A program made the translations under genes and the position numbers. The notes below the pieces were generated by a model that searched no databases, was not told where the DNA came from, and was given only the letters and a program-made list of their open reading frames with translations. 64,000 nt of DNA, from contig OY762943.1 of the NCBI GenBank assembly GCA_963667145.1, positions 1,236,251 to 1,300,250 of the forward strand. Reading direction: 5' to 3'. This DNA is from Candidatus Cloacimonadota bacterium (GTDB taxonomy: Bacteria > Cloacimonadota > Cloacimonadia > G963667145). Below, piece after piece: positions 19,564 through 28,114 of this stretch; the stretch's first letter is position 1; every line of letters begins with the position of its first letter.

Positions 19564-20361
19564 TTGCGAGTAAAAATTACTTTTAGTTCTAATAGAAATT
19601 TTTTTGTCCCTTTCAACTACAAATACGAGATTTCTGCCCTCGTCTACAAGCTAATTGCCACAGCTTCCCAAGATTATGCCACCTTTTTACATGAAAAAGG
19701 TTTTGAATTTGATTTCTTAAGAAAATTCAAACTTTTCACTTTCTCCGATCTAAATTTTATTCCATTTAAAATTGATAAGCTAAAAGGTGGATTTGGCGAA
19801 ATTGAAAAAGTTGAGTTAATTTTTTCCACATTGATTCCCAAAAGTTTTGAAAATTTTATTTTAGGGATTTTTAAAAATCAGAATATTTCACTTGGTTTTG
19901 GTGCAGGCAGAAAAATAGACTTCTTTGCAGAAAATGTGGAAACTTTACCAGAGATAACTTTTGAAAATGAACTTAAATTCAAGTGTCTTTCGCCGATAGT
20001 AGTAACTACTAAAAAAGAAATAAACGGCGATTTGAAATTGCATTTTGTGGAATATAATACTCCCGAAGAAAAGAAACAATTTTCCGAAAACATTCATAAA
20101 AATCTTCTCTATAAATATGCAGCTTTTCATGGTAAAGAATACGGAAATAAAGATTATAATTTTGAATTTCATTTTGATGAGGAATATATCAAAAAACGCA
20201 AAGGGAAAATTTATAAGCTCCTGCGTTACAAAAACACCAATATCAAAGGGATTTATGTTTCGGGTGTTGTAAAAGCTCCCAAAGAGTTGTTAGAGATTTT
20301 GTATTATGCAGGGGTTGGAGAGAAGAATAGCGGGGGATTTGGATGTGTGGAGGAAATTTGA
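19564..20361 (+). CDS. cas6: Cas6 (CRISPR repeat endoribonuclease), type I-B
   Basis: TTG start 8 nt after aaggag. The C-terminal glycine-rich loop GVGEKNSGGFGCV is typical of Cas6. It is the first gene of the cas operon. Confidence 0.75.
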   Translation: MRVKITFSSNRNFFVPFNYKYEISALVYKLIATASQDYATFLHEKGFEFDFLRKFKLFTFSDLNFIPFKIDKLKGGFGEIEKVELIFSTLIPKSFENFILGIFKNQNISLGFGAGRKIDFFAENVETLPEITFENELKFKCLSPIVVTTKKEINGDLKLHFVEYNTPEEKKQFSENIHKNLLYKYAAFHGKEYGNKDYNFEFHFDEEYIKKRKGKIYKLLRYKNTNIKGIYVSGVVKAPKELLEILYYAGVGEKNSGGFGCVEEI

Positions 20362-20370
20362 GAGGTAAGA

Positions 20371-22122
20371 ATGATTTATGATATTTTAGAAATTTTTAGA
20401 AAAGAGTATGAAAAAGATGAGAAAGGTGACAACCTTGTTTTGGGAAGTTATGAGTTAAAAGAAGGTTTATATGTTAAAATAAATAAGAATTATAAAATAG
20501 AATATTTTATGGTTAAAAAGAAAAACAGGGAACTTTTTTTTACTGATATTGATGAGAATTTAAATTATAGTGCCTATAAATGGTTTAAAGAGCGAGATTA
20601 TTATAGTTGCTATTTGAATTCAAACAAAGCATTTTACGACAAAAAAATACATAGTATAAATTATTTTTCTTTATTTGTTAAACTTGATAGTTTTATTTCA
20701 GCTGAACCAAAAAAGATTTTAAAGTGTGAAGTTATAGATAAGCATTATTATAATCTTTGTAATTATAAAAAATTTCAGAAAAAGCAAGAAATTGAAATTC
20801 TTCAAGATTTCCAAAAATATTTAACAAACAGAGAAAGAAGAAAAGATATAATCAAAAAATATAAATTTTTAAGAGAAAATTTGGATTGTATTGTTACAAT
20901 AGCTAAAGAAAATAAAATAAAAAATTATGTTAAAGTGTTTTTTGACGAAAGTGTTGAAAAATATAGAGAGGAAAGTAAAATTTACTATTCTATAAAAATA
21001 TTCAATGATATCAATTATTGTAAAACAATTGAAGGTAAAAATTTTGGTTTGTCAAACTCAAATATGGGATTAAACACCAAAAAACCATATTTGGAACATA
21101 AAACAAAATTTAATACAGTGCCATTTTTAATAGAAAAAAATGATGCCTTAATTTTGAAAATATTTTTTGATTGGTTAAAACTTCAATCGTATAAAGATAA
21201 AGAAAATAAGCCAAAAGACAGATATTTAGATGATAATTTTTTTATGCAAAAACATTCTTCCAATGATGAAGCTGAAATTACAGATTTTGATTATGTTCCC
21301 ACAAGAAAAAATGAATTAGAAAAACCTATTTTGATAAAAAATTATCTTTGGCTTAAGGAAAACAAAACATTAATTCAAGACGATGAAATTGGGAAATTGA
21401 GCAGATTAGAAGCTATAGTTGACGATATTTTTTATAATCATCAATTGATAAATAACTATTACGGTGAAGTATGGAAAAAACTTGATAATTCTTTTGCAAA
21501 TTTTATTTATATTACAAGAGATGCGATGATAGCTTATTTTAGAAAATATGATGAAAAAGGTTTTTTTGATGTAATTAAGAAATACGGCTCAAAACTTATA
21601 ATTGAACATATGAAAAAAGATAGATTATTAAAAGCGGGCAAAGCTTTGAATTTAAAATTATCTTTATTGGAATATAAAGGAGAAAAAATTATGAATATTA
21701 AGCAAATGCAGGAAAAAATTATTGAAAAATTAATGACGTCAAATTACGATAATTTGAATGTAGAAGAGTTTTTTTATCTTTGTGGGCAAATAGCCAGATA
21801 TTTAATTAGTCAAAGTGAAGCTTTCGAGAAAAAAGGAGATATGTTAGATCCGTTTTTAAAAGCAAAAAATGTGGAAAAATTGAAAGAAGTTATTAAAATT
21901 ATATATCAAAAATATAATCATAAAATATTATTGGAATTGATGAAAACTAATAAGGAAGGGATTGTTTACAAAATTTATTTAAAAAAATTTGGTAATGCAA
22001 TAAGTTTAGTTATGGCTTATAATGATGATTTTAATGTTAAAGATAATTATGATAGCCTTCTTATAGGAGCATTGAGTGAAAACATTTTTTATATGAAAAA
22101 TGAAGAAATAAAAGGAGAATGA
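20371..22122 (+). CDS. cas8b: Cas8b (Csh1) large subunit, type I-B
   Basis: A 583-aa Lys/Asn-rich protein sitting between cas6 and cas7 in the canonical I-B order. No other family signature. GC is very low, about 25%. Confidence 0.65.
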
Positions 22123-23063
22123 TTATGAATAGAGTTTATGGTGTTATCGGAATTGGTGTAAAGATGGCAAATTGGAATGCAGATTTTACCGGCAGACCAA
22201 AATCAACCAGCAATGGTGATATTTATGGAAGTGACAAAGCTTTAAAATATCCTATGAAAAAAATGTGGGAAAATGAGGGTCAGAAAATTCTTTTCATGAA
22301 AAGTTGGAAAGAGGAAGTAAAAGAAGGGAAAACAAAAATAAAGCCTAAAAATCTTGGAGAAAGATATGAAGAATTATTTCCCAATTCAGAAAAAAATATT
22401 TTACCAAAAATAGTTTTAAAAAATTTATTTGCTTGTATAGATGTAAAAAATTTTGGAGCTACTTTTCCGGAAAAGGGTCAAAACTTTTCTATCACAGGTG
22501 CTGTGCAAATAGGGCAAGGATTTAATAAATTCGCTGATATCTTTGTTGAAGTTCAAGATATTTTATCTCCTTTTCAGGATTCCAAGGCGGAAGATAAAGG
22601 TAAAGAAGGCAATCAGGCAACTTTGGGGACAAAAATCACAGCTGATGAAGCTCATTATTTTTACGGATTTTCTATAAATCCGAGGAATTATGATGAATAT
22701 AAAAATATAATTGGTGAAGATTTTGAAGGATATACAGAAAATGATTACAAAGAATTTAAAAAGGTGGCTTTAGTTTCTGCTACTTCATTTGCCACAAATT
22801 CCAAATTTGGAGCAAATAATGAGTTTGCTTTATTTGTAGAAACCAAAGAAAATTCAAAATATTATTTACCTGATTTATCTGAATACATTGAATATCAAGA
22901 CAATACAATTGATTTGAGTAAAATTGATGGTATTTTGAAAAACGATGAAATAAAAAGTATAGAAGTATATTATAATCCTTCAACAAGCAAACTCAAAAAA
23001 TTGGAAGCTGAAGCAAAATATTTTAATATAATTACAATGAAGCAAGAAAATGGAAGCAATTAG
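22119..23063 (+). CDS. cas7: Cas7 (Csh2) backbone subunit, type I-B
   Basis: The N-terminus [39 protein letters not shown] is the conserved Cas7/Csh2 signature. It overlaps cas8b by 4 bp. Confidence 0.85.
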
Positions 23064-26848: not shown

Positions 26849-26857
26849 GGAGATAAG

Positions 26858-27847
26858 ATGAAGAGAGATTATTTTTCTTTTTCCAATGGAAGTTTCCAAC
26901 GGAAAGATAATACGCTTCTTTATACTAATCTTGAGGGTAAGAAAAAGATAATCCCCATCGAAACCGTCAAAAATTTATACTCATTTGGGGAGACCGATCT
27001 TAATACCAAGCTTTTGAATTTTTTGGCTCAAAATGAAGTTTTTTTGCATATTTTCAATTACTACGGGTTTTATTCGGGAAGTTTTGTCCCCAGAGACAGC
27101 TTACTTTCCGGAGAAGTGATAGTCAAACAAGTCAAAAAATTTACTAAACCATCTTTGCAATTGATTCTTGCCAAAGAGTTAATTTCGGCTACCAGAGATA
27201 ATATGCTCAAAAATTTGTCTTATTATGCCAATAGAGGCAAAAACGATTTGGATGAAATCAAACAAAAAATGGAGAGTTTTGACCTTGAGGAAGCTGACGA
27301 TACTCAGCAATTGATGGGAATTGAGGGCAATATTCGAAAAACTTATTATCAAAGTTTCAATACAATCATCGATAGGGAAATTGATTTTGAAAAGCGAGTT
27401 AAACGTCCCCCTGACAATATGATAAACACTTTGGTCTCTTTTGGAAATATGATGCTTTACACAGCTGTACTTTCGGAAATTTACCGTACGCAACTAAATC
27501 CCACGATTTCTTTTTATCACAAACCTTCTTATCGCAGATACTCTCTGGCATTGGATATTTCGGAATTGTTCAAACCATTTTTGGTGGATAGAATTATCTT
27601 TAAGCTTCTAAACAAAAATATGATTAGCGAGAAAGATTTCAAAAAAGAACTTAATTTTTGCTATATGAAAGAAAAGGCGAGAAAAGTTTTCGTGAAGGAG
27701 TTTGACGAAAAATTGTCTACGACCATCAAGCACAAAAAACTTGGAAGGAACATTTCTTATAGGCATCTTATGCGGTTGGAATGTTATAAATTTGTAAAAG
27801 TTGTTTTGGAACATATTGATTATGAAGCATTTAGGACTTGGTGGTGA
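26858..27847 (+). CDS. cas1: Cas1 integrase
   Basis: 329 aa. It has the conserved Cas1 fold regions (…GIEGNIRKTYYQSF…KRPPDNMINTLVSFGNMMLY…) and sits before cas2. Confidence 0.9.
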   Translation: MKRDYFSFSNGSFQRKDNTLLYTNLEGKKKIIPIETVKNLYSFGETDLNTKLLNFLAQNEVFLHIFNYYGFYSGSFVPRDSLLSGEVIVKQVKKFTKPSLQLILAKELISATRDNMLKNLSYYANRGKNDLDEIKQKMESFDLEEADDTQQLMGIEGNIRKTYYQSFNTIIDREIDFEKRVKRPPDNMINTLVSFGNMMLYTAVLSEIYRTQLNPTISFYHKPSYRRYSLALDISELFKPFLVDRIIFKLLNKNMISEKDFKKELNFCYMKEKARKVFVKEFDEKLSTTIKHKKLGRNISYRHLMRLECYKFVKVVLEHIDYEAFRTWW

Positions 27848-27850
27848 TTT

Positions 27851-28114
27851 ATGTATGTGATAGCTGTTTATGATATTGGCGAAAAAAGAGTTGGCAAAAT
27901 TTTAAAGATTTTTAGAAAATATTTGACGCGAATTCAAAATTCCGTTTTCGAAGGAGAGATTACCAAATCGAAATTTGAAAAGTTGAAGATAGAAGTGTTA
28001 GAAGTGATTGACAAGGGTTATGATAATGTTTTGTACTACAAATTGACTTCCGATCATTATTTGCGTAAAGAACAGTTGGGAGTGCAATTAGACCAGATGA
28101 GCGTCTTCTTGTAA
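27851..28114 (+). CDS. cas2: Cas2
   Basis: 87 aa. MYVIAVYDIGEKRVGKILKIFRKYLTRIQNSVFEGEI is the canonical Cas2 N-terminus. Confidence 0.85.
   Translation: MYVIAVYDIGEKRVGKILKIFRKYLTRIQNSVFEGEITKSKFEKLKIEVLEVIDKGYDNVLYYKLTSDHYLRKEQLGVQLDQMSVFL

Follow-up and report, generated by a model that had tools for sequence, protein, structure and literature searches.

Does a CRISPR-Cas (short palindromic repeats, clustered and regularly interspaced, with their associated genes) operon whose interference genes are far richer in A and T than its adaptation genes have one evolutionary history or two? The question is raised by a complete type I-B operon on the + strand of a 64,000-nt stretch of Candidatus Cloacimonadota DNA (assembly GCA_963667145.1, contig OY762943.1, forward-strand positions 1,236,251 to 1,300,250). 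This whole stretch is called the window, and the operon occupies its positions 19564-28114. A sequence-only reading of the window had proposed either that the interference module came from an AT-rich donor and was exchanged onto a resident adaptation module and array, or that the interference genes were acquired very recently. It had named three analyses by which this could be examined: sliding-window GC content, a codon adaptation index, and phylogenies of Cas3 or Cas7 against Cas1. The results described below indicate that the locus is probably a type I-B chimera, in which a Cloacimonadota-type frame carries an imported, AT-rich Csh2-type cassette, and that the swap was not recent.

Gene content and base composition of the operon

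The genes are arranged in the order cas6-cas8b-cas7-cas5-cas3-cas4-cas1-cas2, followed by the array, which starts 196 nt past cas2. All eight cas genes were confirmed where the sequence-only reading had placed them, by NCBIfam and Pfam matches and, for Cas8b, by PADLOC:

19564-20361, + strand: cas6, endoribonuclease for the precursor of CRISPR RNA (crRNA) (TIGR01877, above cutoff; PF01881; PF21350)
20371-22122, + strand: cas8b, large subunit, first gene of the AT-rich interference cassette (PADLOC Cas8b model)
22119-23063, + strand: cas7, Csh2 type (PF05107, E = 1.9e-35)
23050-23865, + strand: cas5b (TIGR02592, 141.7 bits against a cutoff of 97)
23875-26322, + strand: cas3, HD nuclease fused to a helicase, final gene of the AT-rich cassette (TIGR01596 for the HD domain and TIGR01587 for the helicase, both above cutoff)
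26323-26350, no strand: cas3/cas4 intergenic junction, the downstream compositional and phylogenetic breakpoint (GC step; protein affinities change lineage)
26351-26848, + strand: cas4, adaptation module (TIGR00372, above cutoff; PF01930)
26858-27847, + strand: cas1, type I-B (HMARI) class (TIGR03641, Cas1b, 431.8 bits against a cutoff of 304.1)
27851-28114, + strand: cas2 (TIGR01573, above cutoff; PF09827)
28115-28310, + strand: putative leader, so called from its position between cas2 and the first repeat, 196 nt, GC 28.6%
28311-36726, + strand: CRISPR array, 30-nt repeat ATTTAAATTAGACTACTGTAGAATTGAAAC in 101 copies, spacers 34-39 nt long (array parsing)

Residues 1-579 of Cas8b match the PADLOC model for the effector large subunit of CAS-I-B (E = 6e-115), and no match to this protein was found in the Pfam or NCBIfam libraries. 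For cas7, the gene callers chose an alternative start at 22125. The features that define type I-B at the sequence level are all present: Cas8b; Cas7, Cas5 and Cas3; cas4-cas1-cas2 with a Cas1 of the I-B class; and Cas6 with an adjacent array. The eight reading frames are intact, and ratios of nonsynonymous to synonymous divergence (dN/dS) of 0.04-0.12 show purifying selection. No tRNA gene was found in the window and no integrase gene adjoins the operon, the only transposase being an IS481-like gene within the array.

An assembly chimera was ruled out. Window positions 19095-28340, or portions of this interval, are matched at 100% identity by five independent short-read assemblies, two of which (L001 and L002) cross both the cas6/cas8b and the cas3/cas4 junction and reproduce them exactly.

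The block cas8b-cas7-cas5-cas3 (20371-26322) has a GC content of 25% (22.7, 29.4, 26.5 and 25.1% for the single genes) and the block cas4-cas1-cas2 of 34.5% (36.9, 33.7 and 32.6%), in flanking DNA of 41.4-41.6% in which single genes span 33-47%. Measured in windows of 300 nt, GC drops from 0.32 to 0.23 at the cas6/cas8b junction (about 20.4 kb) and rises from 0.26 to 0.39 at the cas3/cas4 junction (about 26.3-26.4 kb). The position of the first step places the start of the low-GC block at cas8b and not at cas6, the GC content of which is 31.1%. The compositional split is real, but the figures of the sequence-only reading needed correction. Its 25-28% GC for cas6-cas3 is right for the block overall (26.0% over 19564-26322) and wrong for the boundary, since cas6 lies outside the low-GC block; its 36-48% for cas4-cas1-cas2 applies to cas4 but not to cas1, cas2 or the three genes combined. 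The 23% GC that it gave for the repeat is exact (7 of the 30 bases).

The split resides mainly at synonymous sites. GC content at third codon positions (GC3) is 0.18 in cas8b, 0.20 in cas7, 0.18 in cas5 and 0.20 in cas3, and 0.41 in cas4 and 0.37 in cas1, with the genes from cas4 to cas2 spanning 0.37-0.41. When pooled, the two blocks have a GC3 of 0.188 and 0.384, respectively (chi2 = 95, p = 1.6e-22), and their synonymous codon usage also differs (chi2 = 148, 41 degrees of freedom, p = 5e-14), so that the compositional difference claimed between the modules is real. The 31 flanking genes have a mean GC3 of 0.475 +/- 0.077. Against them, the four interference genes have z values of -3.6 to -3.9, and none of the 31 is lower; the adaptation genes, with z values of -0.85 to -1.4, fall within the host range, at its low end. 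With a GC3 of 0.28 (z = -2.6), cas6 is intermediate and differs significantly from both blocks. At the protein level, Lys, Asn, Ile, Tyr and Phe make up 41-47% of the residues encoded by cas6-cas3 versus 34-38% of those encoded by cas4-cas2. The codon adaptation index computed against the 31 flanking genes did not separate the blocks (0.78-0.82 in the cas genes, host mean 0.77), because the commonest synonymous codons of the host often end in A or T.

Relatives of the interference cassette and of the frame

The closest matches of Cas3 and Cas7 are a handful of proteins at 70-88% identity, followed by proteins of unnamed contigs at 60-79% and, more distantly, by those of Campylobacterota such as Sulfurimonas, Sulfurovum, Aliarcobacter and Sulfurospirillum. 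Cas7 homologues at 60-72% belong to Campylobacterota and uncultured AT-rich contigs, and Cas3 relatives at 52-68% to unnamed contigs and Campylobacterota. In a search of 5.8 billion clustered proteins, the best relatives of the interference proteins outside the small group of the window were 59-79% identical, and no donor above 79% was found.

With an alignment of Cas7 as the query, a scan in which each species was represented by a single genome yielded 80 loci (the numbers preceded by L designate individual loci). In the loci of Campylobacterota type, Cas7 is 58-69%, Cas3 52-57% and Cas5 46-70% identical to the proteins of the window, and Cas8b 41-59% in most of them, whereas Cas1 is just 37-44% and Cas4 38-43% identical. 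The nearest relatives outside the group of the window, L095 and L013-L015, repeat the pattern, with Cas7 at 71-79%, Cas3 at 60-65% and Cas8b at 41-59%, and with Cas1 at 44-46% and Cas4 at 32-40%. A pair of operons that diverged together behaves differently. Between the window and L011 (L006/L011; OY762940.1, the chromosome of a Candidatus Cloacimonadota metagenome-assembled genome, MAG), Cas1 is 92% identical versus 81-88% for the interference proteins. Since Cas1 is the better conserved in a co-diverging operon, the reversed ranking in the Csh2-type loci is a sign of separate histories.

The adaptation proteins lead to other organisms. Cas1 has a cluster-mate at 92% identity, another match at 83% and many at 60-67%, of which those carrying names are Candidatus Cloacimonetes; matches at 52-57% belong to Ignavibacteriae, Nitrospirae and Desulfobacterales. 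Four loci of the nearest Cas1 relatives, L091-L094, were fetched. Their Cas1 is 61-67%, their Cas4 59-72% and their Cas6 39-43% identical to those of the window, and Cas2 is 53-59% identical in L092-L094 versus 31-49% in Csh2-type loci. Their interference genes are of another kind: Cas7 belongs to the DevR family (PF01905), in contrast to PF05107 in the window, L092 and L093 encode a Cas8 of DevT_C type, Cas3 is just 22-25% identical and only over the helicase core, and two of the four loci have cas3 ahead of cas8. No match to the Cas8b of the window was found in L091-L094.

The protein similarity of Cas6 links cas6 to the side of cas4-cas1-cas2 and the repeat. The Cas6 of the window aligns end to end with those of the DevR-type loci L091-L094, is 28-31% identical to those of L013-L015, and has no full-length similarity to the Cas6 encoded upstream of cas8b in the Campylobacterota and Clostridia loci.

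Neighbor-joining trees (numpy implementation, 200 bootstraps) were built from tblastn segments. In the Cas1 tree, the window, L011 and L007 group together at 100% bootstrap, are nested in a Cloacimonetes-type clade at 82% and are split from all Cas1 of Campylobacterota and Clostridia at 100%. In the Cas7, Cas3 and Cas5 trees, the group of the window joins L013-L015 at 98-100% (98% for Cas5), within the Csh2-type family. The phylogenies of Cas3 and Cas7 are therefore incongruent with that of Cas1, as the exchange put forward by the sequence-only reading predicted.

The repeat of the window tracks the lineage of Cas1 and not that of the interference genes. The repeats of L092-L094 belong to the CTTTTAATCAGACC...GGAATTGAAAC family, which is also the family of the repeat in the window, and the L011 repeat is CTTTAAATTAGACTACTGTAGAATTGAAAT. 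Those of the Campylobacterota loci form a different family, CTTGAACC...TTGTATTGAAAC (tabulated as CTTGAACCGACACA....TTGTATTGAAAC), and those of the Clostridia loci are GTTGAACCTTAACAT..GATGTATTTAAAT. The repeat of the window and many repeats of the home lineage of the cassette share the terminal ATTGAAAC.

Thus four markers, composition, protein phylogeny, the affinity of Cas6 and the repeat family, agree on the breakpoints. The exchange of an interference module from an AT-rich source onto an adaptation module and array, as first proposed, is supported by phylogeny, repeat family and composition, with the correction that cas6 does not belong to the exchanged block. The frame would be made up of cas6 and cas4-cas1-cas2, together with the leader, the array and its repeat. 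It is of a type that is common in Candidatus Cloacimonadota and whose other sampled members are paired with a DevR-type interference module. The Csh2-type cassette cas8b-cas7-cas5-cas3, with relatives in AT-rich uncultured bacteria, Campylobacterota and Clostridia, would have replaced the original interference genes, or recombined in their place, with breakpoints at the cas6/cas8b and cas3/cas4 gene junctions. It would have kept the AT-rich synonymous-site signature of its source lineage while drifting slowly toward the composition of the host.

In type I-B systems, Cas6 cleaves the repeat so that an 8-nt 5' handle remains, Cas5 and Cas7 bind the handle and the guide, Cas8b recognizes the protospacer-adjacent motif, Cas3 degrades the target, and Cas1, Cas2 and Cas4 insert spacers beside the leader. 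Cleavage of the repeat of the window by Cas6 would leave the 8-nt handle AUUGAAAC. Both repeat families may end in one 8-nt crRNA 5' handle, ATTGAAAC, to which Cas5 and Cas7 would bind. Because this handle is shared and the cognate Cas6 has stayed with the repeat, the imported Cascade and Cas3 could use the crRNAs of the resident array.

A single operon history without any exchange, in which the interference genes are intrinsically AT-richer, was also considered. Weaker purifying selection combined with AT-biased mutation could be the cause, or selection for rare AT-ending codons or for silencing that hold the expression of Cascade and Cas3 low. The dN/dS values of the interference genes are indeed two to three times those of cas4 and cas1, and the split persists in two lineages past a synonymous divergence (dS) of ~0.85. 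Furthermore, GC3 is higher in the adaptation than in the interference genes in all 17 of the 17 loci of Campylobacterota type (mean difference +0.152, Wilcoxon p = 3e-4), where interference GC3 follows host GC at a constant lag; the slope of GC3 on flank GC is 1.6 for adaptation and 0.9 for interference genes. However, an intrinsic cause does not account for affinities that are categorically incongruent, the nearest relatives in Cas1, Cas4, Cas6 and repeat having a PF01905 Cas7, a Cas3 at 22-25% identity and, in L092 and L093, another type of Cas8. The intergenic GC of the flanks is 37.5%, so drift or relaxed selection alone would not be expected to push GC3 to 0.19. Nor is an intrinsic difference between modules seen in the 21 loci of Clostridia type, where the mean difference in GC3 (adaptation minus interference) is +0.001.

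Moreover, the clade with the split is also the clade in which Cas1 and Cas3 distances are weakly coupled, with a Mantel r of 0.42 in the Campylobacterota-type loci (n = 17) and of 0.70 in the Clostridia-type loci (n = 21). Among the clear outlier pairs of Campylobacterota type, L025 and L031, for instance, lie at a distance of 0.10 in Cas1 and of 0.69 in Cas3. The coincidence of split and weak coupling in one clade ties the AT-rich signature to a cassette lineage that is swapped more freely than its adaptation partners. The GC3 split is a trait of this cassette lineage, and a gene-specific cause of AT-richness may contribute to it. As the sole explanation, a history without exchange is largely refuted, and we regard it as very unlikely.

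Age and direction of the probable exchange

The chimera of the window is not alone, as L011 carries it with the same breakpoints and a similar split (GC3 of 0.17 in the interference and 0.33 in the adaptation genes). Between the two loci, dS is 0.93 for cas6, 0.82 for cas7, 0.85 for cas5, 0.81 for cas3, 0.88 for cas4 and 0.89 for cas1. Such uniform values in both modules mean that the modules diverged together and that the swap is older than the split between the window and L011. In this pair, weaker constraint accounts for the lower protein identity of the interference genes, with dN/dS of 0.08-0.12 in cas6 and the interference genes and of 0.04-0.05 in cas4 and cas1. A further copy of the chimera is found in L007, at a dS of about 0.8-1.6 from the window. 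The values for cas8b against L011 and for cas7 against L007 were discarded, the former for an insertion sequence (IS) and the latter for frameshifts. The swap would thus have preceded the divergence of the sampled Cloacimonadota loci, and the chimera would since have moved or been inherited as a unit.

These data bear directly on the second proposal of the sequence-only reading, a very recent acquisition of the cassette by this genome. The strong contrast with the host (z = -3.6 to -3.9) and the sharp steps at gene junctions are what such an event would leave. But the same chimera with the same breakpoints is present in L011 and L007 at dS values of 0.81-0.93 and about 0.8-1.6, both modules being about 0.8-0.9 apart in L011, and among the 5.8 billion proteins searched no interference protein outside the group comes nearer than 65-79% identity, the best relatives overall lying at 59-79%. 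That proposal therefore fails, and a recent origin appears extremely improbable. In the cassette, third-position changes polarized with an outgroup number 50-63 from A/T to G/C versus 14-25 from G/C to A/T on both branches, and this bias is suggestive of the slow amelioration of an AT-rich import.

The direction of the transfer was examined as well. A Csh2-type locus could have been the original one, its cas6, cas4-cas1-cas2 and array having been replaced by a Cloacimonadota-type frame in one or two events. The trees give incongruence but no direction, and L012 (L008/L012) shows that the flanking parts also turn over. In this locus, cas8b-cas3 are 70-79% identical to the window, while cas6 is divergent (56% identical) with a host-like GC3 of 0.42, cas3 is truncated, cas4-cas1-cas2 are absent, and a prophage comes next. 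Nevertheless, this history needs two non-adjacent replacements, compared with one for a central cassette; the compositional outlier in the host is the cassette and not the frame; and the frame is of the type commonly named Cloacimonetes. Replacement of the frame is therefore clearly unlikely, although somewhat less so than the absence of any exchange. The Cloacimonadota-type loci are in any case mosaics with piecewise turnover.

Several observations weigh against the import of the cassette into a Cloacimonadota-type frame. The direction is unproven, the trees equally permitting an incoming frame that replaced the adaptation side of a Csh2-type locus, and composition alone argues for import of the cassette. 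The trees are neighbor-joining trees on tblastn segments and not maximum-likelihood trees, and the nesting of Cas1 in the Cloacimonetes-type clade reaches only 82%. A split that lasts past a dS of ~0.85 and occurs in 17 of 17 related loci could reflect a gene-specific cause and not history alone. The polarized counts were obtained by parsimony with saturated outgroups (dS >1), which is known to inflate changes from common to rare states. The pooled adaptation genes lie significantly below the flanks in GC (p = 1.7e-4), and the locus is found at different genomic sites in related genomes. In L011 and L012 it adjoins rpoC-rpsL-rpsG-rnpA-yidC. Its neighbors in the window are a family-2 glycosyltransferase gene and a 230-amino-acid (aa) open reading frame (ORF) at one end and a 2230-aa ORF at the opposite end. 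From the lower GC and the differing sites together, it follows that the frame may not be resident in this genome. The description of the adaptation module as host-like and resident accordingly stands insofar as its GC3 falls within the host range, and not as regards its composition relative to the flanks or a fixed position. With these points taken into account, the import of the cassette into the frame, before the sampled loci diverged, is still considered the probable history.

A bolder version of this history can be formulated. The cassette might behave as a plug-in that is semi-autonomous and stays AT-rich as it passes from phylum to phylum (Clostridia, Campylobacterota, Cloacimonadota and others), docks onto any frame whose repeat ends in ATTGAAAC, in some lineages with a nested ptuAB pair, and has its AT-richness maintained. 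If so, the low GC would not be a decaying relic but could be kept up either because the cassette is replaced again and again out of an AT-rich pool or because selection favors it, for example through expression damping or xenogeneic silencing. We consider this speculative and rather unlikely. The lag of the interference genes behind the adaptation genes in GC3 across a whole clade poses a small question that can be examined at scale.

Comparison with known systems and further features of the loci

Subtype I-B with a Csh2-type Cas7 reportedly corresponds to the 'Hmari' group of Haft's early scheme and is found in Clostridia and Haloarchaea. The window resembles Csh2-type I-B loci in its gene order, from cas6 to cas2 and then the array, in its PF05107/Csh2 Cas7, Cas5b (TIGR02592) and fused HD-helicase Cas3, and in its 30-nt repeats ending in ATTGAAAC. 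It differs from those of Clostridia and Campylobacterota in Cas1 (only 37-43% identical), Cas4, Cas2, Cas6 and repeat family, and in a cassette that is far AT-richer than the rest of the operon. With the 'Tneap'-like, DevR-type I-B loci of Cloacimonadota (L091-L094), a DevR-type variant that was called I-G by Vestergaard et al. (2014), it shares the type of Cas1, Cas4, Cas2 and Cas6 and the repeat family CTTTTAATCAGACC...GGAATTGAAAC. It departs from them in the family of its interference module (a PF05107 instead of a PF01905 Cas7, and Cas3 at 22-25%).

According to the literature, modules are exchanged particularly often in I-B and the Tneap-like group, and the exchange of type I-B modules is already well known, so this locus is a clean example and not a discovery. 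As in the published cases, related adaptation modules are found with different interference modules, and the phylogeny of Cas1 does not follow the effector type. Unlike in those cases, the locus is bacterial (Cloacimonadota), the compositional steps are sharp, cas6 stays with the adaptation and array side, and the chimera can be dated against a sister locus by uniform dS.

The locus thus offers a datable bacterial instance of a known rule, the semi-independent evolution of the adaptation and interference modules of CRISPR systems. It points to Cas6, the repeat and Cas1-Cas2-Cas4 as the parts that must stay together and to Cascade with Cas3 as the interchangeable part, which may be useful for inferring the compatibility of repeats and effectors and for building hybrid I-B systems. 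It also calls for caution, since the effector of this locus would be misclassified from its Cas1 tree or repeat type, and a low-GC block within an operon is no evidence of recent transfer.

Some related loci carry a Septu pair (ptuAB) nested between cas8b and cas7, which is absent from the window. The pair, or an insert at the same position, was located as follows, in the coordinates of each locus:

L008/L012, 7902-9998: insert at the cas8b/cas7 position
L095, 2304-4428: Septu pair
L029, 7855-10004: Septu pair

PADLOC, which was run on L095 and L029 only, identified the PtuA ATPase with E = 5e-76 and 4e-60 and the PtuB HNH nuclease with E = 2e-44 and 1e-45. At the same position, L008/L012 has AAA_15/AAA_21 ATPase genes and a 206-aa ORF. 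Six additional loci (L013, L014, L018, L023, L028 and L044) have a gap of 1.7-2.2 kb between cas8b and cas7 and are candidate Septu sites by this gap alone. The hosts of loci with cas8b/cas7 inserts are Cloacimonadota, several Campylobacterota, a Deltaproteobacteria MAG and unclassified bacteria. Among the papers searched, none was found to describe a Septu pair within a cas operon, which is not proof of novelty.

The two sister chimeras have features of their own. In L011, an IS3-type element, the ORFs of which have HTH_Tnp_1 and rve domains, splits cas8b (L006 coordinates 5251-8267), and because of this interruption the interference module there is probably inactive; its array has at least 123 repeats. 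In L007, a 22-kb contig, type III-like genes directly follow cas1 (14010-21523), including several RAMP-family proteins (PF03787) and a 795-aa protein. Its cas2 lies ~8 kb beyond, and several of its interference genes appear frameshifted.

The array of the window is interrupted by an IS481-like element at ~31638-32858 (region 31612-32914), inserted within a CRISPR repeat. The repeat is broken after ...GAATTG at 31637, and ACTACTGTAGAATTG recurs at 32859-32873, resembling a 15-nt target duplication. The gene for the IS481-family transposase lies on the minus strand (31624-32712; NF033577, E = 9e-43, under the family cutoff) and terminates within the repeat remnant. Additionally, a block of nine spacers at 29721-30318 is repeated in tandem at 30319-30916, and the stretch from 34.4 to 36.1 kb (34398-36097) holds six further spacers that occur twice or three times. 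Of the 98 spacers parsed, 82 are unique. A repeat-free gap of 571 nt (within 36126-36726) precedes the last perfect repeat, at 36697-36726.

Elsewhere in the window, three adjacent + strand ORFs (51708-52079, 52092-53174 and 53175-54005) have a GC content of 33-37% and a GC3 of 0.24-0.37, well under their neighbors, and may form another small island of acquired genes. Positions 52260-52358 hold a tandem repeat of 51 nt. Finally, two very large ORFs are found on the minus strand, of 1690 aa (5431-10503) and 2230 aa (37064-43756). Within the former, units of 339 nt (3.1 copies, 8015-9060) and of 81 nt are repeated in tandem; the latter, which borders the CRISPR array, has a 75-nt repeat (37822-37996), and both probably encode repetitive surface proteins.

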